IMG/VR virus record: IMGVR_UViG_645948442_000001 | Coordinates: 32,001 to 96,000 of that record | Length of the DNA: 64,000 nt | Strand: one strand, 5' to 3' | Origin: a virus | Taxonomy: Duplodnaviria > Caudoviricetes | Shown: piece by piece, positions 5,551 to 56,571 of the stretch | How the letters are laid out: the number at the start of each line of letters is the position of its first letter | How positions within the stretch are numbered: the first letter of the stretch is position 1 | Notes under the pieces: generated by a model | Databases searched by the model: none | The model's input: the letters and a program-made list of their open reading frames with translations, nothing else | What the model was told of the DNA's origin: nothing | Position numbers and translations under genes: made by a program

Positions 5551-5592
5551 GTATTTAGCAAAAGAAAAGCCCCTCCAGTTGAGGAGGGGCTT
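5551..5592 (-). promoter_or_regulatory. terminator hairpin plus late promoter cassette (near-identical to 19673-19712)
   Basis: AGCCCCTC stem, T-tract, then TAAATA on minus strand just upstream of portal. Confidence 0.75.
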
Positions 5593-6934: not shown

Positions 6935-9418
6935 TCAGGTCAGCTCAACCTCATCGAAGTTGATGCCAGGGCGCACTGCGTCGAAGTGGAGGTCAATCCA
7001 GTTGATGCTGTACAGCGGACGGATGCGGATGTGACCGACCATTCGGTTCTCAGCACGCACGTCAGGGCCGTTGTTGCGGTCGTCGCAGATCAGCTGGAAG
7101 TCCTCAAACGCCCGACCAGCCACCATGTTGCGGAGGAACGGGCGAGCCGCGTTCAACCACTGGTTGCGGGTGTAAGGGTCGTTGATTTCGAACAGGTACT
7201 GGCGGCTGAAGTTGGCCAGAGACTTCTGAGCAACGATGAACGCCATGCGCGTATTCACTCGGCTGAACGAGCTGGGACGCTGAGTGGACATCTTGTCACC
7301 GTACAGCACCATGCCTTCGCCGGGGAACGTCACAGCCGAGTTGACCCCGACCTTGTACAGCGTGTCACGGGAACCCTTGTTCGCCGACCAGGCCATGCGC
7401 TTGTAATTCTTGTACAGACCGCGCTGGTGGCCGGAGAAGTTGGTCCACGGATAGCCGTTGAGGGCAGCGCGTGCCTGCAGCCCAGCGGTGCCACCGCAGA
7501 TAGGGATCCAACGATCCTTGTCGTTGTACTTGTCGTAGATCAGGCCCCAGTTGTCGTTGTTGAACAGGTACGTGCTGTCACGGTTCACCTGGTTCACACG
7601 CCAATCGTGCACGGCCTCGGTCTCGCGACCCTTGTTGTTCACCACGTTGCGGAATTGGGGGCTCAGGTGACCCACAACGTCGCGACGGGTTTCAACCACA
7701 TCCACCAGCGCCTTTTGCTCACTGATGTTGCCAGCGATCCAGACATAGTTCACGTCCAGCGCTTCCGCGTTGTCCAGGAGCTTGATGCCCGTTTCCTTGG
7801 AAACAGTGTAGTCGTCCACGCCACCAGACAGTTCGATCGTGCCAGCCGCGAAGGGCTGAGCGCGGTCTGCCCAGTAGACGTAGCGGCTGGACTGGCGCAG
7901 GCTGTCGAAGATGTTCTTCAGCGTGCCATCAGCAAATTTGTCACCTGGCTTGGTCGTCTGGATTTCGTAACGCTCCAGCAGAGTGCCCAGTTGACCCTGG
8001 ACGCTCACGCCATACGTGAATTCCAGACCGGCTTGGGTCTCGGGGGTCACCAGCACAGGCTTCAGCCCAGCTTCCTTGTGGGCGAAGTGGATCGTGGTCC
8101 GCTCAACTCGGATGTCCTCGAACTCTTCGCTGAAGTCAGCATTGGCTGCCAGGGCAGTTGCAATCGCACTCGCCACCTGGGCCGTGGTCATCTGAGCAGT
8201 CACCAGGACGTTGGCACCGAAAACGGTGATCACGTCGTTACCGGGCGAACCGTTGGACACAACGGTCTCGACCATCGTGATGCCTTGGCGCTCAGCGGGC
8301 ACGGGGATAGCAGCCTGCGGACCCTTGGCCACCAGGTGGTAGGTCACGATGTCGTTCGTGCTGTCATACGCCACGTTGGTGATCACTTGGCTGGTGGCCG
8401 AAGCAGTCACGAACTTCTGGGACACGGCAGCGGAGGTGTCAGCCTCGGCAATCGTGAAAGTGAAGTCAGCGAAGATCACAGAGGAGCTCACTTGACCGTC
8501 ACCAGCGCGAGTCTGCTTGTTCAGTGCGTTTGCGCTGCCAGAACCACTGATCAAGACACTCTCGCCAACCAGGTCTTCGTAGTCGTACTTGATCGCGAAT
8601 GCGCCCATGTAGTTGTAGCCCACGCTGCTCGGCATGAACAGAGCAGGTTGCTTCATCATGGCTGCCACGATGCGGGGATACACGTCAGTGTCACTCTCAC
8701 CGGGCATGAACGGGACCATCAGGTCGCCGATAGGGACTTCGCCACCCTTGGCGTGATCGGTGATGGACAGCTTGAAGTCAGTGATCGCGTAGGTCTTGGT
8801 GGCAGGGCCGCCAGCAAACTTCAGAGAACGCACTTCTCTGGTCGGGGAGGCGTCAACCTCGCCATACACCGACAGGCTCTCGCGTTGCTTGCTGCGCCCT
8901 TGACCGGAGAAGCGGCCGGAGCCGTCAACGACAGCCACAGCATATTCACCAGCACCGGGCACATACTCGAAAGCCTGGGCGAATTCCCAGGTGGGGAAGC
9001 GAGCGGCGTCGGCGATATCCAGAGTCAGGCCGTTGCCCAGAGAGCCGGGATAGCGAGCAATCACGGTCTGACCGGGATGGATAGAGCCATCGAAGTCGTC
9101 TTCGTTGTTGATCAGAACAGCTTCGCCCACTGCGGTTGCGTTCTTGGCGTTCTTGCCCACCACACGAGTGAACCACATCTTGGCCGAGTAGGTCAAGAAG
9201 TCGATGGACGTCAGCATGTCCAGATACGTGGACTCGTCTGGCTTGTGGAACTTGGTCACCAGCTCAGCCTCGCCGCCAGTGATCAAAACGGGAGTGCCGG
9301 CAGGCCCCCAAGGTGTGTAACCGGCGGAACCGCCGATGTAGTCAGCTTGCTGGACAACCGCGAGGGACTGGAAGTCCGACTCGAAGATGTTCACAGACGG
9401 AGAGATGTAAAAAGCCAC
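6935..9418 (-). CDS. gp18: tail sheath protein (gp18-like) with internal insertion
   Basis: SPSV N-terminus, WGP, ARYPGSLGN, YDKYND, FEINDPYTR, CDDRNN. Confidence 0.95.
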   Translation of the reverse strand: MAFYISPSVNIFESDFQSLAVVQQADYIGGSAGYTPWGPAGTPVLITGGEAELVTKFHKPDESTYLDMLTSIDFLTYSAKMWFTRVVGKNAKNATAVGEAVLINNEDDFDGSIHPGQTVIARYPGSLGNGLTLDIADAARFPTWEFAQAFEYVPGAGEYAVAVVDGSGRFSGQGRSKQRESLSVYGEVDASPTREVRSLKFAGGPATKTYAITDFKLSITDHAKGGEVPIGDLMVPFMPGESDTDVYPRIVAAMMKQPALFMPSSVGYNYMGAFAIKYDYEDLVGESVLISGSGSANALNKQTRAGDGQVSSSVIFADFTFTIAEADTSAAVSQKFVTASATSQVITNVAYDSTNDIVTYHLVAKGPQAAIPVPAERQGITMVETVVSNGSPGNDVITVFGANVLVTAQMTTAQVASAIATALAANADFSEEFEDIRVERTTIHFAHKEAGLKPVLVTPETQAGLEFTYGVSVQGQLGTLLERYEIQTTKPGDKFADGTLKNIFDSLRQSSRYVYWADRAQPFAAGTIELSGGVDDYTVSKETGIKLLDNAEALDVNYVWIAGNISEQKALVDVVETRRDVVGHLSPQFRNVVNNKGRETEAVHDWRVNQVNRDSTYLFNNDNWGLIYDKYNDKDRWIPICGGTAGLQARAALNGYPWTNFSGHQRGLYKNYKRMAWSANKGSRDTLYKVGVNSAVTFPGEGMVLYGDKMSTQRPSSFSRVNTRMAFIVAQKSLANFSRQYLFEINDPYTRNQWLNAARPFLRNMVAGRAFEDFQLICDDRNNGPDVRAENRMVGHIRIRPLYSINWIDLHFDAVRPGINFDEVELT

Positions 9419-9464
9419 GAAATGCTCCTTTCGATTCAGTACCTGTATTTAGTCAAGTGGAAAC

Positions 9465-19672: not shown

Positions 19673-19715
19673 GTATTTAGCAAAAGAAAAGCCCCTCCAT
19701 TGAGGAGGGGCTCTT
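19673..19715 (-). promoter_or_regulatory. terminator hairpin plus late promoter cassette
   Basis: Matches 5551-5591 except for one loop base. Confidence 0.75.
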
Positions 19716-25537: not shown

Positions 25538-26278
25538 TCACTCTTTGATGAGCGTCAACTTGAAGCCGCCTGGGTGGAAATTGGGGTAGTAGATCCGATC
25601 AAGGATCTCCTGGTAATGAATGGGGTCCCTAGTCACCTTGATTACCATGCTGTACTCCTGGTACACTTCATCGTCCCGGATCAGAGTGGTGTCCCCGTCT
25701 ATCACCATGTCGTCATCAATCCGAGCCAACACCAACTTCGGGTTGAAGAACTGGATGTCCTCGCCGAAGAATATGTTGAACAGCAGCCTCAACACGAAGT
25801 TGGTGCCCTTGGAGGCATACAGATGCTTCAGCAAACGGAGGTATCGCACCTCATCGATTTGCTCCAGCGTAGACAGATTGTTCGAAGGGGTGTGATTCAT
25901 CCGCTTCGACCACATCTCAATACCAGCGTTGATGTCCGTGACTGTGTCCCAGATCAACCCATCAGATTCCGTGAAGGTCTCAGCATCAGCAGTCTCGAAC
26001 CCGTCAAAGGCCCGGTACAGAGTCATGTTGTCATGAAAATTCTGATGCCAGATGCCAGGCTGGACCCAATTCTCATGTTTGTTGACCAGGTCAGAGTTAG
26101 TCAGCGGATCATACCGACCTTCTGACTCCTTCTCACGGTAGAACCTGACCTCGCCACGTGTCAAACCATTGCGATACTGCCAGTCATAGTACTGGTCAAG
26201 GAGGGCAATAACCCTGGGGGAATCCGTCAGCATCCGACGTGGGAGCTGGGCGCTGACGAAGTCGGTATCAGTTCTCAT
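25538..26278 (-). CDS. baseplate wedge protein (gp7-like N-terminal region)
   Basis: LLDQYYDW, LYASKGT..LF, YQEYS, HPGGFK; follows gp6. Confidence 0.65.
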   Translation of the reverse strand: MRTDTDFVSAQLPRRMLTDSPRVIALLDQYYDWQYRNGLTRGEVRFYREKESEGRYDPLTNSDLVNKHENWVQPGIWHQNFHDNMTLYRAFDGFETADAETFTESDGLIWDTVTDINAGIEMWSKRMNHTPSNNLSTLEQIDEVRYLRLLKHLYASKGTNFVLRLLFNIFFGEDIQFFNPKLVLARIDDDMVIDGDTTLIRDDEVYQEYSMVIKVTRDPIHYQEILDRIYYPNFHPGGFKLTLIKE

Positions 26279-28070
26279 AGATCAACTCGCGGGAGCGAAC
26301 CTCAAGGTCAACGTTGGTGATACTCAGGATGGACCGCTTGGATCCAAACAGAGAGGGGTCTTGACTGTCAGGAGTGATAGCCACATGCACCCCTTCTGCT
26401 GTGTCAGTTGACAGGGCCAGGAACTTCACCAACTGAATGGTGCCCTTCGCGTAGTCAACCGTGCCGGCAGGGGCGGGAGAGATGCGTTCGCCGCCCGCCT
26501 CCTTGTCTCGGTTGCGCCAACGCAGGTACAACAATCCATCCTTGTCAAAGATGTCCTGGGCCCAACCGGCAATGTCGACTGGAGAAGGCGTGCTGAACTG
26601 GGTGATGCGCACAGACCCTGGCTTGATCGGGGAAGTGAAGCTGAATGTGTAGTTGTTGGCTGCACCAATCGCCGGGGCCATCATCTTCACATAGTCAACG
26701 TACAAGGTGAGCCCACGGATGGACTGATCGACGCCATTGACAAATCCGACCAGGTTGGAGTACACGAAGTCAGAACCGAAGAACTCCAGATGCTCCTTGC
26801 TCCACTGCTGGATGGCCCGGGTCACCTTGATCTTCATGGACTGCTCACTCAGCACAGTGCTGTTGTGGCTGTACAGAACTTGACCACGGATGTTGATGTG
26901 GGTGAATATAGGGTCCACAATCATGGGAGTCACAGAGGAAACGCACCGGCTGGTGAGCATGCCCTTCAGCTCAGCCTTCTGGACATCATCAAGCAGGTCA
27001 CCACTCTTGGGTTTGACCGCAACAAACTGGTAGCCATACATGGGCGGGTCGTTCTCCTCACCGCCCCAGCTGATGGCCGATTCAGCTTCTGGGAAGTTGG
27101 CCAGGGTCAGAGCCACGAAGTCATTGGTGGTGACAGCGTTGCCTTGTGCAGAGAAAGCCAGCGGCGCGATGCGTCGCACTGTGTCAATGGCGTCCTCATC
27201 AGAACCGCCATAGCTGTACATCTGGATGGGGAACACAGACACGCCATAGTGACCACCCACAGAGCTCACCGACTCAACGGCCTTGGCTCCGTTGCCATCT
27301 GCGCCTTCAGTGGTGAGGGCTTCAATCACCACGACTGATCCGAAGGCCGGGCGACGGCTGATCTTGTCGTCCCCGAACTCAATGCTGTAACGACCGTTCT
27401 TGTCTGAGTCCAGGAAGAACACACATTGATCTTTGCCCAGATCATAGATGTTCTCAAACTTCTTGTAATTGGTCAAGTCGGTGGACTTGTTGTTGGGGAG
27501 CACACCAACCTTGACGAAATCTGTGTCAACCGAATCGAACGGGATGGTGTATGCTTCCGTGGTGTGATCAGCCTGCACCACATAAGAATGGTTCACCCAT
27601 CGTCCCTGCACCAACTCAACGTTCTTGAAGGTGTACGCCCCGTCAATCAGCTCCGCCTCATGCTCTGTGGATGCGCTGAAGAAGAGGCTCACGCCATCCT
27701 TGTTGGTGAAGAATTTCGCCTTGCGATCCAGAACCAGTGTGGGGGTGGTGGTTGCCCCGGTGACTGGGCGCACCACGATATCGGCATGGTACCTGGCCGC
27801 GCGCTTTCCTCGTGGCACATACCCCAGCACAGATGAGATTGCGTTCACGTTCCTTGGGATTGTGGCCGACTGGAGGTCCATCTCATTGAACAGGAAGTTG
27901 TTGCCCGCCTGCTGCATCTGAGAGTTGTACGCAAGGACGCGTAGAATAGCCTTGGCCACGGAGCCGTCCCAGTTCACGTCTCGGAACCCGGCCTGTGTAC
28001 TCATGTACGTCTTCAACGACTCCATGATGTCGTTGAACTCGAAACTCTGGGTCATCCGATTGATAGTCAT
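26268..28070 (-). CDS. gp6: baseplate wedge subunit (gp6-like)
   Basis: LAYN, LGYVP, IEFGD, QGNAVTTNDF, WGGEENDPPMYG, GTVDY. Confidence 0.93.
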   Translation of the reverse strand: MTINRMTQSFEFNDIMESLKTYMSTQAGFRDVNWDGSVAKAILRVLAYNSQMQQAGNNFLFNEMDLQSATIPRNVNAISSVLGYVPRGKRAARYHADIVVRPVTGATTTPTLVLDRKAKFFTNKDGVSLFFSASTEHEAELIDGAYTFKNVELVQGRWVNHSYVVQADHTTEAYTIPFDSVDTDFVKVGVLPNNKSTDLTNYKKFENIYDLGKDQCVFFLDSDKNGRYSIEFGDDKISRRPAFGSVVVIEALTTEGADGNGAKAVESVSSVGGHYGVSVFPIQMYSYGGSDEDAIDTVRRIAPLAFSAQGNAVTTNDFVALTLANFPEAESAISWGGEENDPPMYGYQFVAVKPKSGDLLDDVQKAELKGMLTSRCVSSVTPMIVDPIFTHINIRGQVLYSHNSTVLSEQSMKIKVTRAIQQWSKEHLEFFGSDFVYSNLVGFVNGVDQSIRGLTLYVDYVKMMAPAIGAANNYTFSFTSPIKPGSVRITQFSTPSPVDIAGWAQDIFDKDGLLYLRWRNRDKEAGGERISPAPAGTVDYAKGTIQLVKFLALSTDTAEGVHVAITPDSQDPSLFGSKRSILSITNVDLEVRSRELIYEN

Positions 28071-28113
28071 CACGATCTCCAATAATAGTGCTCAATGTAT
28101 TTACTCATCAAAA

Positions 28114-28125
28114 TTCAGCTATAAT
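28114..28125 (+). promoter_or_regulatory. sigma70-type -10 promoter (TTCAGCTATAAT)
   Basis: Same context as other early promoters (46483, 48967); back-to-back with the gp6 late promoter. Confidence 0.65.
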
Positions 28126-28134
28126 AAGTATGAT

Positions 28135-28646
28135 GTGCGTGAAACCCTTACCCTTTGGGACACGTGACCGCTATACTGATCATCCAGGCATGGGTGAGCC
28201 TTTACCCCATTCACCGAATGGCCGTGTGAGCAACGGCAACTGTCCGATCGAGAAATCGCGGGCGCCTCGAACCTGTGAAGAGAGCAGGCGTGTGGCATAG
28301 AGACAAGACCAATTCCGGTTTTCCTGCTGGGTCTTGTCTCCATCATTCTATTGATGTTTGGACTCATGTCCATGATGTGCCTTCTGACGACGCGCGAGGT
28401 GAAACAAAGAACAAGGAAGGCGATGGACGCCTGCTGTCTGACCGGACAGTGGCGGGAGGGAGTGTTCCCTCAAAGTCTGAGTACATGCTGGTCGGTTCCC
28501 GATCAGTCCACCGTGCAGGGGTGGCCCACTACCTTGTTCAGATGTCTGACGACTGAGAGTCTCGTTTCTCTCTTTCGTTTATGGCATCTGAGCACTCAGG
28601 TAGTGGGATGGAAAAGGGATGAATTGCGTCTGTGCCATTCACGCGC
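28135..28646 (+). ncRNA. putative large structured non-coding RNA, family unknown
   Basis: More than ten nested helices, 5'/3' closing stem, G-U pairs favouring the + strand, no credible ORF. Confidence 0.6.
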
Positions 28647-28741
28647 CGTAGGCGCATGATTTGCACAATGGTATATCGCGCGAGAAGCGCAGCCAGACAG
28701 CCTGTTAAATACAGACAGATAAACCAATTTGAGAACCCAAC

Positions 28742-29047
28742 ATGTTTGCTCCTATCGCTGAATATCAAACTCCCTATTTCTCCATGACTGCTGTCGGTCT
28801 GGTGGGCCAAGACCAGAAGTTCTACCCAGGGGCCATCTTCCGTGGTTCGGACAAGGCGCTGGCTGAGATATTCGAAGGCCACACCATAACACTGAGTCAG
28901 AATGGAGTGGTCACTCTGGATGGTGAGGAGCTGGGAGCTTCGATCAGGCTGTTCAACTGCCCCAAGCGTGAGGTGATCGGTCGCTGGGTCAAGAGCATGA
29001 TCGGTACTGGAGCACTGGTTCTCGTCATCGACTATGCTGCTCAATGA
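28742..29047 (+). CDS. hypothetical protein
   Basis: ORF with typical codons after TAAATA at 28706. Confidence 0.7.
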   Translation: MFAPIAEYQTPYFSMTAVGLVGQDQKFYPGAIFRGSDKALAEIFEGHTITLSQNGVVTLDGEELGASIRLFNCPKREVIGRWVKSMIGTGALVLVIDYAAQ

Positions 29048-29653: not shown

Positions 29654-29701
29654 ATCCCTGCCCCGAGCCAGTCTCGGGGCATTTGTCTTATCTGGAGTCT
29701 C

Positions 29702-31312
29702 ATGGACGCTCAAACCGAACATATCCTGGCCATCGCGCGTAAACACTTCCCATACCCCACACCCAATCCAGGACAACTGGAAACCATTGTAGAAACCGTC
29801 AAGGCATTCAAGTCCGGCAAGAAGCATGTGGTGGTTCAAGCGCCCACAGGCATCGGCAAGTCTGCTATCGCCAAGACAGTTCACTCAGTGATGGCTGAAC
29901 TGAGTCCCGACAGGTTCAGAACCACCATAACGACGGCCTCTAAGGCCCTGCAGGACCAATACACGGAGGAATACAAGCAGATCTATGACCTGCGTGGTCG
30001 GACCAACTACGACTGCCCTCATAGCCTCGGCCCGTACAACAGCGGATCATGCCGGGGCGCCCGCCGCAGGAAGGAATGCAATGCCAAGGCTGAGTGCCCC
30101 TACCTGCAGACCCGCAACCACTGGTGCAACATCGCCGATCTACGTGTGACCAACAACAGCTTCAGCATCGAAGCCTGCGCCATGCTGGTGATGAGGCCCG
30201 AGAACCGAGCGAACCTGATCATCATCGATGAGTGCCATGAAATTGATGACAGCCTTTTGGAGCACACGAAGATCATGCTCAGGCCGTCTGACTTCTGGGG
30301 CATTGACGATCTGAGTGAGCAGATCAAGAAGGTCATCTCCCTGTTCACCATGATCCCTCTCGGGGTGCCTGTCGTGACTACAGACAACATGAAGCAGGCT
30401 TTCGCTGAATTCGCTGAACGGGCCAGCGCCGTCTACGACAGGCTGGTCGAGGACTTCGAGAAGCGCAACGGCGACTTGGACGCACTGGGCGACAAGATTG
30501 ACACCATGGAAACCATCATGGACAAGCTGGGTATGTTCATCGGCCCTGAAGTGTCCACATGGATCGTCGAGGAGGTCAACCCTGATCTGTCCTACCTGTC
30601 CCTGAAGCCCATCAAGGCCAGCCAGGTGGCGTACTACGGCCTGTTCCGCAAGGCTGACTACTTCCTGCACATGTCTGCTACGATCTGCGGCTTCGGAGAG
30701 TACGCTGAGTCACTGGGCATCAAAGATGATGAGGTGGAGTACCTCGATGCACCGAACCCCATCCCCGTGGCCTCTCGCATGGTGTATGTGCCAGCCAAAC
30801 AGAAGGTGTCTGGCACAATCGACTACGACCAGTTGACCGAGAACATCGACAACCTCATCAGCCTGCACCCTGAAGAGAATGGTCTGATCCACACGGTATC
30901 CTACATGCTGGCCAACGAGGTGTTCAAGCGCAGCAAACACCGGGATCGCATGTTCATGTCCAAGGACAGGGCTGAGATGGTGTCTGAGCTCCGCACCCGC
31001 AAGAATGTGGTCGTGTTGAGCCCTTCCATCGAGAAGGGGTTCGACGCCAAGGGTGACATGGCCAGGTTCCAAATCGTGGCCAAGGTTCCATTCCCATATC
31101 TCGGGGACAGTCTGGTTAAGTACAACAGCACGAACACGGCTGGGTGGTATGAGCGCAAGACGGCATTGAGGGTGGTACAGGCTTGCGGCCGCGTGACTCG
31201 GGGAGTCAGCGACTTCGGGGTGACGTACATCATCGATACCAACTTCAGGCGCCTGTACGAGCAGAATCCACACCTGTTCCCTGAATGGTACAAGCAATCT
31301 GTGAGGATGTGA
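29702..31312 (+). CDS. DinG/Rad3-family SF2 helicase with probable Fe-S cluster
   Basis: APTGIGKS, four-Cys region, DECH, MSAT, KVPFP, QACGRVTR. Confidence 0.9.
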   Translation: MDAQTEHILAIARKHFPYPTPNPGQLETIVETVKAFKSGKKHVVVQAPTGIGKSAIAKTVHSVMAELSPDRFRTTITTASKALQDQYTEEYKQIYDLRGRTNYDCPHSLGPYNSGSCRGARRRKECNAKAECPYLQTRNHWCNIADLRVTNNSFSIEACAMLVMRPENRANLIIIDECHEIDDSLLEHTKIMLRPSDFWGIDDLSEQIKKVISLFTMIPLGVPVVTTDNMKQAFAEFAERASAVYDRLVEDFEKRNGDLDALGDKIDTMETIMDKLGMFIGPEVSTWIVEEVNPDLSYLSLKPIKASQVAYYGLFRKADYFLHMSATICGFGEYAESLGIKDDEVEYLDAPNPIPVASRMVYVPAKQKVSGTIDYDQLTENIDNLISLHPEENGLIHTVSYMLANEVFKRSKHRDRMFMSKDRAEMVSELRTRKNVVVLSPSIEKGFDAKGDMARFQIVAKVPFPYLGDSLVKYNSTNTAGWYERKTALRVVQACGRVTRGVSDFGVTYIIDTNFRRLYEQNPHLFPEWYKQSVRM

Positions 31313-31675: not shown

Positions 31676-32683
31676 ATGGCCTTCGACTTCAACCCTCAGC
31701 ACCGGGACATCAAGACAGTCCCCACTGACGAACTGAAATCCTGGATGATTGACCAGACCATCCGCTGGGCGTACCATCGCGAATGGGCTCGTCGCAACAA
31801 GGTCATGAACCAGCCCAAGCCCTGGTCTGTGGATACCATCATCCAGAGCTACCGATTCTGCAACGTCAATCGCCAGGACGACAAGGAGACCATGCTGCTG
31901 AATCATGGTTTCTTCGACCCCAATCGCGACCGTCATGACCTGTGGTTCAACATCGCAGTGGCGCGCTGGATCAACTGGGCTCCAACAGTGCTGGCCATCG
32001 GATACACGAACCTGGACAACGGCTACGATGCTGATGACATGTTCAAGCGGATGATGGCTGTGCCTGAAGGCAAGTTCTACACCGGCGCCTACATGATCCG
32101 GGGCTGCACTTCGGCGAAGGAAGTGGGCGGCGATCAGGAGGAGTACGAACGCTGCAAGAACAAGCGATACTTCCTGGCGCATCACGTGTTCAAGGGCATC
32201 TATGAAGTGGGCGCCCCCGAACCTGGCGAGAGCCTGGAATCGTACCACAAGCGGTTGATGACTGCTTCCTCCAACGGGGCTTTCATGGCAGGCCAGCAAA
32301 TCGCTGACCTGAAGTATTACACCATGTCCAAGGCGCCTGACTGGCACACCTGGGGTCCTGAAGGCCCTGGTCCACACAAGTACCTGAACATGTACAACGG
32401 GCGTGGCCTGGATGAAGACCGGCTGGGCCAGAAGTTCATCGAAGAACTGGCTGAGTGGGAGTCAACCTTCAAGTCCCGGCTTTCGTCTGTGATGCTTGAC
32501 CTGAACGGCGCCGACCTCCACATCATGAAGGATGTGGCCAAGGCCCTGGCTGACCCCCACAATCTCAAGTCAAATCTAGTTTGCGAGGTCAGCAAATACT
32601 TGAAGGCAATGTCGGGCGGTCGCCTTCGTAACAATTACGACGGCAAGGCCACCACTACTACACTTGCTCAGTTTGCTCCTTGA
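31676..32683 (+). CDS. 5-hydroxymethyluracil DNA kinase (aGPT-Pplase1 family)
   Basis: PWSVD.II..YRFCNVNRQDD, YTGAY, F.A.Q..ADL.Y, GPG, CE..KY motifs. Confidence 0.8.
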   Translation: MAFDFNPQHRDIKTVPTDELKSWMIDQTIRWAYHREWARRNKVMNQPKPWSVDTIIQSYRFCNVNRQDDKETMLLNHGFFDPNRDRHDLWFNIAVARWINWAPTVLAIGYTNLDNGYDADDMFKRMMAVPEGKFYTGAYMIRGCTSAKEVGGDQEEYERCKNKRYFLAHHVFKGIYEVGAPEPGESLESYHKRLMTASSNGAFMAGQQIADLKYYTMSKAPDWHTWGPEGPGPHKYLNMYNGRGLDEDRLGQKFIEELAEWESTFKSRLSSVMLDLNGADLHIMKDVAKALADPHNLKSNLVCEVSKYLKAMSGGRLRNNYDGKATTTTLAQFAP

Positions 32684-34432: not shown

Positions 34433-34597
34433 AAAGACCCCTCCGCAAGGAGGGGTTTTCTGATTTCTGTGTATCGCGGCTATAATTGTATCCGCGCAAC
34501 ATCGCTTTCGGCAAAAATGTCCGAAATTGTTTTGTATTAACAACGGCTTACGGGCCAGGAAACCCAAACGCCACACCACTCATCAGGAACCCATGAA

Positions 34598-46450: not shown

Positions 46451-46500
46451 TCAAAAGCCCCTTCGCGCCGAAGGGGCAATTCTTCAGCTATAATTGTCTC

Positions 46501-48198: not shown

Positions 48199-48923
48199 AA
48201 ATGTTCAATCTGAGAGAAGCAACTCTGGACGCTGGCGTCCCGCAATCCCGCATCGACGAGGCGATGGCTAATTTCGATCTGGCCAAGAAAATCCACAAGG
48301 GCATGGACTGGATTGGCCTTTGGGCCCCATTCGTCATGCTCTGGGTCTGCTGGGGTGGATACCCGGCCAAGGTGGATGGAAAGTGGCGATGGAAGCGGGT
48401 CACCAACTGGGAAGACAACAAGTTGCCGGAGCGATGGTGGAAGTACGACAACAACGTCAGCATGAATGGTGACGGCTGGGGCATGATCCTCTCTGATGGC
48501 ACTCACACAAGCCGGTTCAGCCGGGAGGAGGTCGACAGTGGACAAACCATCCCCATCCCTTACACTGACCCTGCGTACAAGGGCGACTCGTACTATTGCA
48601 AGGGCCACCACCCTCGCAGCCGTTTGGCTCGCTACGTCTGGATGGGTCTCCGCAATCGAGGTTCTCTGTACGCACTTGAAATGGGTCATAGCCTGGATCC
48701 GTTCAAGCCACTTGAGCAGTGGGGTGTCCTGAACCAAGGCAAGGAGATCGATGGAGTCAAGGTGATCTGCTGCGACGGTGTCTGGCAGCTGACCGAGACC
48801 AAGAAGCGTGGTTGGATTGAGATCAACCGCAACGTGGGTTTCAAGGTGAACAACGCCCGCACAGGCAACGTCACCAAGGCTGCGGTCACCTGGTCGCCAT
48901 TCTATTTCCGCATTCGCCCTTGA
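48186..48923 (+). CDS. Trp-rich hypothetical protein
   Basis: NGDGW and RYVWMGLRN motifs; start may be 48201. Confidence 0.7.
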   Translation: MYEVKMFNLREATLDAGVPQSRIDEAMANFDLAKKIHKGMDWIGLWAPFVMLWVCWGGYPAKVDGKWRWKRVTNWEDNKLPERWWKYDNNVSMNGDGWGMILSDGTHTSRFSREEVDSGQTIPIPYTDPAYKGDSYYCKGHHPRSRLARYVWMGLRNRGSLYALEMGHSLDPFKPLEQWGVLNQGKEIDGVKVICCDGVWQLTETKKRGWIEINRNVGFKVNNARTGNVTKAAVTWSPFYFRIRP

Positions 48924-48984
48924 GCAAAGCCCCTCCCCTGCGGAGGGGCTTTTTGCTTTCTGGGCCATCAGCTATAATGGTAGC

Positions 48985-54825: not shown

Positions 54826-54913
54826 TCAAAGCCCCTCCAAACCGGAGGGGCTTTTGTTTGTGCAAACTCTCAGGCTATAATTGAGTCCATCAACAACATC
54901 ACTGGAGAATCTC

Positions 54914-56521: not shown

Positions 56522-56571
56522 ACAAAGCCCCTCCTTGCGAGGGGCTTTTGCTTTGGGGCTATAATCTCGGC

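Follow-up and report, generated by a model that had tools for sequence, protein, structure and literature searches.

Introduction

The processive antitermination sites put of phage HK022 and nut of phage lambda follow closely on the first promoters of divergent early operons and act in cis, on transcripts with terminators to pass. Their RNAs are about 20-70 nt long, consist of one or two stem-loops, and are more alike between the copies of one phage than between phages. The RNA II preprimer of plasmid ColE1 is a structured RNA, about 500 nt long, that has its own promoter, and its folding controls hybrid formation. PeSLs are short units made of a stem-loop and a promoter. Here, we describe e60, an intergenic stretch that is most likely transcribed into a structured + strand RNA, together with two related stretches of the same phage genome. 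e60 lies in a window of 64,000 nucleotides that corresponds to bases 32001-96000 of the 157,486-bp virus record IMGVR_UViG_645948442_000001; positions are those of the window unless they are marked as genome positions.

Large T4-like and Ackermannviridae-related phages have been annotated almost entirely by their proteins. In T4, oriE, oriF and oriG lie near regions of transcriptional divergence (PMC3016281). oriF, or ori(uvsY), consists of a promoter with a downstream A+T-rich unwinding element, and its transcript forms a priming R-loop, an origin structure that is unwound by the late-made UvsW (PMC3016281). The T4 origins ori(uvsY)/oriF and ori(34)/oriG are stretches of about 100 bp with no shared sequence and no need for RNA structure (PMC3016281). 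GOLLD, ROOL and OLE are large, multi-helix, phage-associated non-coding RNAs (ncRNAs) (PMC12286853), and the PeSL cassettes of T4-type phages are repeated intergenic modules with an early promoter (PMC2839356, PMC4122927).

Folding, strand and coding capacity of e60

The element and its promoter are as follows.

28132..28650, + strand: structured non-coding element e60, delimited by its outlying fold, codon usage and homology to e25 (below)
28116..28125, + strand: promoter P1, CAGCTATAAT, pointing into e60

An initial annotation, made from the sequence alone, had marked 28114-28655 as a highly structured RNA-like element to be compared with shuffled controls, and the comparison bears this out. 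The + strand of this stretch folds at -225.1 kcal/mol, against -185.5 +/- 6.8 kcal/mol for 100 dinucleotide shuffles (z -5.87), none of which folds as well. The - strand folds at -197.4 kcal/mol (z -4.51), so that the + strand is favoured as the RNA strand, as the annotation had proposed. As a genomic control, we folded 146 windows of 540 nt, taken on the + strand only every 1080 nt, and regressed their energies on G+C: e60 lies 3.37 standard deviations (SD) below the regression line and is the strongest outlier, the lowest of the 146 windows being at -2.55 SD.

The stems listed in the annotation were recovered in the sequence, by an inverted-repeat search and in the minimum-energy fold. The inverted repeats found are 28236-49/28440-53, 28279-91/28427-39, 28297-310/28330-43, 28525-34/28598-607 and 28535-44/28585-94, and the minimum-energy fold contains the local hairpins and the stem 28379-85/28415-21. 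The 2 proposed closing stems, 28135-43/28638-46 and 28151-56/28613-18, are complementary in sequence, but the minimum-energy fold does not use them. TATAAT is present at 28120-28125 and belongs to a phage promoter motif with 28 copies, and TCTGACGAC does occur twice, at 28383 and 28545.

The gap that holds e60 is non-coding by its codon usage. On a codon log-odds table built from 91 long open reading frames (ORFs) of the genome, the gap ORFs score -0.17 to +0.03 per codon, and ORFs 28130-28300 and 28366-28659 score -0.14 to -0.16; all of them fall within the range of 243 spurious ORFs (mean -0.25). For reference, the gp6 gene on one side of the gap scores +0.39 and the 3 small genes after it +0.32 to +0.41. 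Comparison of the gap with 211 phage proteins at the protein level gave nothing above noise.

No Rfam 15 family matched anywhere in the window at gathering thresholds. When the limit was relaxed to E up to 10 over 27950-28850, only 4 chance-level matches appeared (E 3.3-6.7, 10-19 bits); the loci of e25 and e136 had no Rfam match, and no tRNA or tmRNA gene was found. The Infernal search suggested earlier assigns e60 to no family, group I and II introns, RNase P, tmRNA, HEARO and riboswitches included, and the e60 family is real and new to Rfam.

Two paralogs and the parts they share

The promoter copies at 28118 and at genome 25605 have flanking sequence in common, which led us to search the genome with the gap around the second copy. 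Two further elements are the result.

genome ~25579-26026, + strand: e25, between a UvsW-like helicase gene (- strand) and a UvsY-like recombination mediator gene (+ strand)
genome 136873-136476, - strand: e136, an nhmmer match to e25

With e25 as the nhmmer query, e136 was found at E 1.9e-15 and the 3' part of e60 (28450-28642) at E 0.0036. After removal of the promoter, e60 and e25 align with a local score of 57.5, against a best score of 43.0 in 100 shuffles (z 7.6), and with a global z of 4.0. Judged by sequence, e60 is therefore one of 3 related elements and not a singleton: e25, e60 and e136 have in common similarity beyond the promoter, the orientation of that promoter and a position at a divergent junction. 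e60 is the largest of the 3, which measure about 400-520 nt each and about 1.4 kb together. The reading as a pseudogene of the gene at genome 131473-131898 (nhmmer E 0.0074) was rejected, having no protein-level support.

On a strand map made from 211 crude gene calls, which also underlie the gap statistics below, there are 3 major switches from the - to the + strand (at about 25.6, 60.4 and 136.7 kb) with one copy at each, and the remaining switches of this kind involve single genes that are probably miscalled. Every copy points away from the divergent gene beside it, and the block that lies ahead of its promoter holds genes for replication, recombination or nucleotide metabolism. At e136, the neighbours are a 182-aa gene followed by a phosphoesterase gene (- strand) and, on the other side, the gene for a topoisomerase II large subunit (+ strand). 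At e60 and e25, the divergent gene carries a late-type promoter motif.

Within e60, alignments and folds distinguish the following parts.

28174..28343, + strand: e60-specific expansion with hairpins, the 5' strands of 2 long-range stems and the hairpin 28297-28343; opposite gaps in e25 and e136
28358..28371, + strand: conserved block TTGGACTCATGTCC, from alignments
28379..28421, + strand: hairpin with the conserved A-rich GGTGAAACAA..CAAGGA (28398-28417) in its loop, from folds and alignment
28525..28607, + strand: long arm 28525-46/28583-607, from the fold and inverted repeats; its 3' strand lies within the conserved 3' block
28593..28647, + strand: conserved 3' block, purine-rich (GGA.GGAAAAG) and then GAATTGCGTC, from alignments
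28622-28654 in e60, L017:1435-1477 in e25 and L016:1097-1029 (- strand) in e136: mini-ORF in the 3' block, probably not a gene

The 3' block at 28593..28647 is the best-conserved stretch among the 3 copies. Besides it and the promoter region, e60 and e25 share GGACTCA(T/C)G.CC (28360-28371), TCTGACG followed by GGTGAAACAA..CAAGGA (28383-28417), GGACAG.GG.GGGAGGGA (28444-28463) and GAGTAC (28479-28484). At the conserved block 28358..28371, e25 and e136 have an identical 14-mer, TAGGACTCACGACC. The A-rich loop recurs in e25 on a 7-bp stem of unrelated sequence (compared by eye), and e25 and e136 form a 9-pair helix (helix 16) whose 3' strand is equivalent to that of the long arm of e60. In the alignments, about 170 nt of e60 (28174-28343) have no counterpart in e25 or e136. 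The stems 28239-46/28443-50, 28283-91/28427-35 and 28300-10/28330-40 fall in this stretch without alignable paralog sequence, and the first 2, which are long-range, are beyond the reach of paralog comparison because their 5' strands lie in 28174-28343.

CTGACG occurs 5 times on the sense strand of the 3 elements (e60, 28384 and 28546; e25, genome 25619 and 25740; e136, genome 136828 on the - strand), where its frequency in the genome predicts about 0.6. The motif might bind a protein or make a tertiary contact. e60 also contains a sigma-70-like promoter match on the - strand, towards gp6 (TGGACA-16-TAGAAT, 10 of 12 positions, 28345-28372), which overlaps the conserved GGACTCATGTCC block and is not kept in e25.

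Compensatory changes and natural variants

The RNAalifold consensus of e25 and e136 has 70 pairs, all formed in both, and 23 of these have changed on both sides and still pair; such counts lean towards the consensus structures, because these were derived from the same sequences. When the 3' partners were slid by 1-3 columns as a control, only 1-3 such pairs remained and 36-46% of cells were paired, and none of 500 column shuffles reached the observed pairing values. The clearest double changes between conserved flanks are in helix 6 (3 of 6 pairs) and in helices 5, 15 and 18. The 5' block and the 3' block pair over long range through helices 2 and 3, with one double change each. The alignment itself is poor in parts. 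The consensus of the reverse strand is weaker (-55.9 against -62.0 kcal/mol), with 58 pairs and 15 compensatory changes, and it loses the G-U-rich helix 16. Compensatory changes, for which the initial annotation proposed to look in homologs, are present in the paralogs; no close relatives of the phage were found for such a comparison.

Natural variants came from contigs of 3 public runs, covering 27916-28209, 28070-28303 and 28550-28832. Four variants inside e60 fit the + strand fold: 28190 A>G falls within a hairpin loop; the two C>U changes, at 28206 and 28627, each stand opposite a G in that fold and keep a G-U pair; and at 28573 one base is lost from an unpaired run. These variants lend weak support to a + strand RNA. 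Upstream of 28000, a few contigs match over 35-39 nt only, and their continuation differs from the window. The contig covering 28070-28303 is 242 nt long (depth 9.3), has 3 differences and comes from a wastewater library labelled as metagenomic RNA-Seq cDNA; because this library is flagged as probably DNA, the contig says nothing on expression.

Promoters and the operon downstream of e60

The features on either side of e60 are listed here.

26268..28070, - strand: baseplate wedge gp6 gene (phrog_219, E 1.8e-157; Pfam gp6 domains)
28096..28104, - strand: motif resembling a late-type promoter, GTAAATACA, about 25 nt in front of the gp6 start
28705..28714, + strand: motif resembling a late-type promoter, TTAAATACAG, with the ATG at 28742 about 30 nt further on; inverted partner of the motif at 28096
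28742..29047, + strand: first gene downstream of e60, 101 aa, codon score +0.32
29659..29681, + strand: hairpin of 9 pairs, 7 of them G-C, resembling an intrinsic terminator and immediately upstream of the ribosome-binding site of the helicase gene
29702-31312, + strand: DNA helicase gene, after the run of small genes that starts at 28742

Transcription from P1 would start near 28132. The motif GCTATAAT within P1 occurs 28 times in the genome (16 on the + strand, 12 on the - strand), where about 4.8 copies are expected. The crude gene calls put 23 of these copies between genes, and almost every copy is directed at the gene that follows. Each of the 3 elements begins at such a promoter; the copy at 28118-28125 faces e60, and no other follows on the + strand before 34479. 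Elsewhere in the genome, many copies of GCTATAAT stand in cassettes in which a G+C-rich hairpin and T run (GGGGCTTTTGCTTTT-like) immediately precedes CAGCTATAAT; in the window, such cassettes are found, for example, at 34434-34486, 46455-46494, 48940-48978, 54845-54881 and 56530-56565.

Neither a terminator nor any other defined 3' end was found behind e60, e25 or e136, and e25 continues straight into the ribosome-binding site of uvsY. Physically, e60 is the leader of the downstream operon. The initial annotation had expected a discrete RNA of about 500 nt, which is unsupported, as no such end was found in any copy. Further downstream, there is no recognised promoter between the hairpin at 29659-29681 and the helicase gene.

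A second class of motif marks the opposite strand. CTAAATAC or a close variant (TAAATAC) stands about 25 nt before the start in 5 of the 13 - strand upstream regions of at least 25 nt in the structural block, and 2 of these 5 sites come directly after a terminator hairpin. Sites of the form CTAAATAC(A) on the - strand are at 5551-5558, 9445-9452, 19673-19680 and 28096-28104. From the functions of the genes and a likeness to T4's TATAAATA, we infer that these motifs are late-type promoters. The 'TGTATTTA' block shared upstream of e60 and e25 would then be the late-type promoter of the divergent strand (gp6 at e60, the helicase gene at e25); a TATTTAG motif that had first been taken as a sign of homology is explained in the same way, as the late-type promoter of the divergent gene. 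Since e60 is flanked by 2 late-type motifs that both face outward, only P1 would transcribe it.

Elements at the same positions in RSP15

Protein comparisons make the phage a distant relative of Ackermannviridae, and the closest match to its gp6 is that of Ralstonia phage RSP15 (38% identity). RSP15 has an unannotated gap of 532 bp (48448-48979) between gp6 and a small gene that is followed by a helicase gene, the same arrangement as at e60. This gap has 2 paralogs within RSP15 (E 4e-18 with 70% identity and E 1.3e-11 with 68%), lying in gaps of 838 bp (7563-8400) upstream of a UvsY-like gene and of 470 bp (106408-106877) upstream of the sliding clamp gene, both of them divergent junctions. 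Two positions, gp6 and uvsY, are therefore common to the copies of the 2 phages. All 3 RSP15 copies start with TTGACA-N17-TA..AT, and in 2 of them (R48 and R106) another promoter of this kind stands at the 3' end. The consensus of the 3 copies comprises 70 pairs, of which 19 have changed on both sides, against 1-5 after sliding; in helices 5 and 12, these amount to 4 of 6 and 3 of 4 pairs. The RSP15 copies match no Rfam family. We also noted that each RSP15 element lies between 2 sigma-70-like promoters and has recurring A-rich motifs of type GGAAGAAAAG, and that RSP15 has CTAAATA at matching places upstream of gp6 and other divergent genes.

The likeness between the 2 phages is one of position and organisation only, without detectable sequence similarity. 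An RSP15 profile found none of the 3 copies in this genome (best E 0.31, elsewhere), pairwise alignments of RSP15 copies with those of this phage did not exceed z 2.0 relative to shuffles, the covariance model R1, built on the RSP15 3' domain, recovered RSP15 alone, and a profile of the e25/e60/e136 family had no match in loci from other phages. Within either genome, the copies resemble each other far more than they resemble the copy at the corresponding position in the other phage.

A blastn search of phage records gave no match, and the relatives that gp6-based scans of IMG/VR and of metagenome contigs brought up were all at 28% identity. The conserved 3' block, used as a search pattern, had 0 matches in viral contigs and 0 in genome contigs; because these scans require exact short words, relatives at 60-80% identity may be missed. 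Literature searches on Ackermannviridae transcriptomes and ncRNA and on RSP15 intergenic regions turned up no description of such elements. Among the other phages compared, Cygsa01 has a 695-bp gap upstream of its gp3-uvsY operon without paralogs, the gp6, clamp and gp5 gaps of Limestonevirus XF4 share only repeats of 60 nt or less, and Acinetobacter phage SH-Ab 15599 has no gap at gp6; no comparable element family was found in these 3.

Discussion

Based on these findings, we tentatively propose, as the best of several readings, that the e60 family may be a new family of cis-transcribed structured leader RNAs heading early or middle operons. P1 would transcribe e60 early or in mid-infection as the 5' leader of the downstream operon, and the leader would act in cis as a folded RNA. 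The initial annotation had spoken of a new class of large phage ncRNA. A structured + strand RNA without an Rfam match agrees with this; its picture of a single RNA does not hold, as e60 is one of 3 paralogs at the heads of operons.

How such a leader might act can be outlined. In a scheme of the nut or put kind, the leader, alone or with a phage-specific factor, would modify the elongating polymerase or the transcript, and transcripts from P1 could then read through internal terminators such as 29659-29681, so that genes lacking their own promoter would be expressed. A role in readthrough is favoured by P1 being the sole GCTATAAT promoter for about 6 kb and by the terminator-like hairpin before the helicase gene. 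Doubtful as this scheme is when taken by itself, we consider it the most likely mechanism; control of the stability or translation of the same transcripts would come next among the mechanisms in cis.

Several observations weigh against the leader proposal. The pairs were counted on consensus structures derived from the same 2-3 sequences, the three-way consensus of the 3' domain is poor (-14.3 kcal/mol; MAFFT does not align the variable interior), and the variants at 28573 and 28627, seen in a contig of depth 2, could be errors. Taken singly, e25 and e136 fold only modestly better than shuffles (z -2.24 and -0.79). The relationship of e60 to the other copies is uneven: its direct comparison with e136 is not significant (z 0.7 and 1.8), and as an nhmmer query, e60 finds neither e25 nor e136. 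The genes downstream of the 3 copies are unrelated to each other. A second promoter lies between element and gene in e136 and in 2 or 3 of the RSP15 copies, and a late-type motif lies between e60 and its downstream gene, so that the downstream genes are not strictly dependent on the leader. Finally, put and nut RNAs are shorter than the element by a factor of 5-7.

A stand-alone, trans-acting ncRNA of about 500 nt, released by processing and serving as a scaffold, decoy or ribozyme, with 3 copies raising its dose, appears unlikely. In its favour are the element's own promoter and conserved helices, conserved A-rich loops of the kind typical of complex folded RNAs, a promoter or late motif behind the element in several copies, and the absence of a match in Rfam. 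However, there is neither a terminator nor a shared 3'-end signal, length and central portions vary strongly from copy to copy, which would be odd for one function in trans, and no catalytic-core motif was recognised; nothing points to any of the 3 roles, all of which had been suggested in the initial annotation. The fixed positions at the heads of operons in 2 phages also argue for a role in cis rather than for a stand-alone RNA.

Another idea, to which we give slightly less credence, is that the elements are RNA-primed replication origins, at which the P1 transcript forms a persistent RNA-DNA hybrid that primes the leading strand while RNA folding controls the hybrid. The 3 elements might then be the origins of this phage and the RSP15 family those of RSP15, a large, phage-specific folded RNA from an early promoter deciding whether its purine-rich 3' block remains paired with the template and serves as a primer for DNA synthesis. 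The 3 copies do lie at the 3 major points of transcriptional divergence, one of them is at the uvsY promoter in both phages, and a UvsW-like helicase gene with a late-type motif stands back to back with e25. The second promoter behind the element fits an independent unit, and likeness within a genome greater than likeness at the same position is expected for sites that co-evolve with a phage factor; a switch like that of ColE1 RNA II at ori(uvsY)-type positions would explain this co-evolution of the copies. Against this stand the composition of the elements, with no A+T-rich unwinding element (the richest 40-mers hold 25, 23 and 23 A+T in e60, e25 and e136) and no marked bias of G over C in the RNA strand (skew 0.01-0.08), and a cumulative GC skew that has no turning point at the copies. 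Moreover, the T4 origins share no motifs and need no RNA helices (PMC3016281), and the compensatory changes would be unexplained unless the RNA worked in a ColE1-like way.

Still less probable, in our view, are duplicated or mobile remnants in permissive intergenic spaces, or sites that function as DNA, with an incidental RNA fold. The restriction of the family to one genome, the unrelated-looking family in RSP15, an e136 that folds no better than shuffles and an enrichment of CTGACG that could mark a protein-binding site would all suit this idea. This reading does not account for double-changed pairs between conserved flanks (helix 6 of e25/e136; helices 5 and 12 of RSP15) or for G-U pairs that favour the promoter-sense strand, and no terminal repeats, transposase or endonuclease are associated with the copies.

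Missed small protein genes (ORF 28130-28300, ORF 28366-28659 or the mini-ORF in the 3' block) are highly improbable: although 3 of the 4 differences between e25 and e136 in the 3' block are at third codon positions of a frame reading (V)VNCV, or MNCV in e60 (by eye), 2 of the 3 "synonymous" changes can be accounted for just as well by compensation, their partners having changed in the 5' block (pairs 53/392 and 58/386). The mini-ORF is 10, 22 or an open number of codons long, and its similarity ends after 5-7 residues. Moreover, e136 has no sense ORF of at least 70 aa, some gaps in the alignment of e25 with e136 have lengths not divisible by three (by eye), and the gap ORFs score at best +0.03 per codon, like the spurious ones.

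The surroundings of e60 add some detail. The gap that holds it lies between the gp6 gene on the - strand and a run of small genes on the + strand. The gp6 ORF as listed reaches 28082 (TTG), and its start is likely the ATG at 28070, behind GGAG. No other stretch of the window without a called gene is as long as this gap (659 bp), and in the whole genome only one is longer, so that its earlier description as the only long gap holds approximately; that longer one, of 729 bp, is in reality a homing-endonuclease gene. This gene (HNH; phrog_655, E 6.1e-49) follows the topoisomerase II large subunit gene at genome ~138780-139679, outside the window; it has a G+C of 0.49, atypical codon usage and a fold z of -4.13 over only 20 shuffles, and the gene caller missed it because of its low G+C and atypical codon usage. 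The product of 28742..29047 has no PHROG or Pfam match. One more gene of the window may be listed.

31676-32683, + strand: 5-hmdU DNA kinase helical domain (PF18723, E 5.8e-26) in the encoded protein

Its presence suggests hypermodified thymidine in the phage DNA.

Comparison with known systems

About 1.4 kb of this genome is spent on 3 folded non-coding elements at points of divergence, and a distant relative does likewise with unrelated-looking sequence. If these elements were origins, they would tie RNA structure to origin firing in T4-like replication, and the question of origin choice would become testable; if they controlled readthrough, the RNA would be much larger than any known antiterminator. 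Either way, a candidate is added to the short list of large structured phage RNAs.

The PeSL cassettes resemble the many terminator and GCTATAAT cassettes of this genome. The 3 elements differ from them in being long bodies downstream of the promoter, and no terminator precedes the promoter at the 3 junctions. Like GOLLD, ROOL and OLE, the e60 family is large, multi-helix, phage-borne and non-coding, but no covariance model of these RNAs matches e60 over 27950-28850 even at E up to 10; to our knowledge, they have not been described as multi-copy operon leaders. e60 resembles ColE1 RNA II in its size, in having its own promoter and in a fold that could decide the fate of the 3' end, the 3' block of e60 being purine-rich. 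Here, however, the host replicon is a phage and not a plasmid, there are 3 copies, and neither an RNA I-type antisense partner nor an origin was identified.

The resemblance to T4 ori(uvsY) lies in a promoter at the upstream edge, a point of divergence, a copy at the uvsY promoter and the adjoining UvsW-like helicase gene. Unlike ori(uvsY) and ori(34), the elements have no A+T-rich tract, and they show conserved RNA helices and clear paralogy. Compared with put and nut, the e60 family is far from minimal, with 400-520 nt and at least 10 helices, and no small two-stem-loop (put) or boxA/boxB (nut) motif was seen in e60 by eye. In position, e60 lies as a put or nut site does, with P1 at 28116-28125, a terminator-like hairpin at 29659-29681 and no further GCTATAAT on the + strand until 34479. 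As with put and nut, these are paralogous elements downstream of promoters, and the copies within one phage are the most alike.

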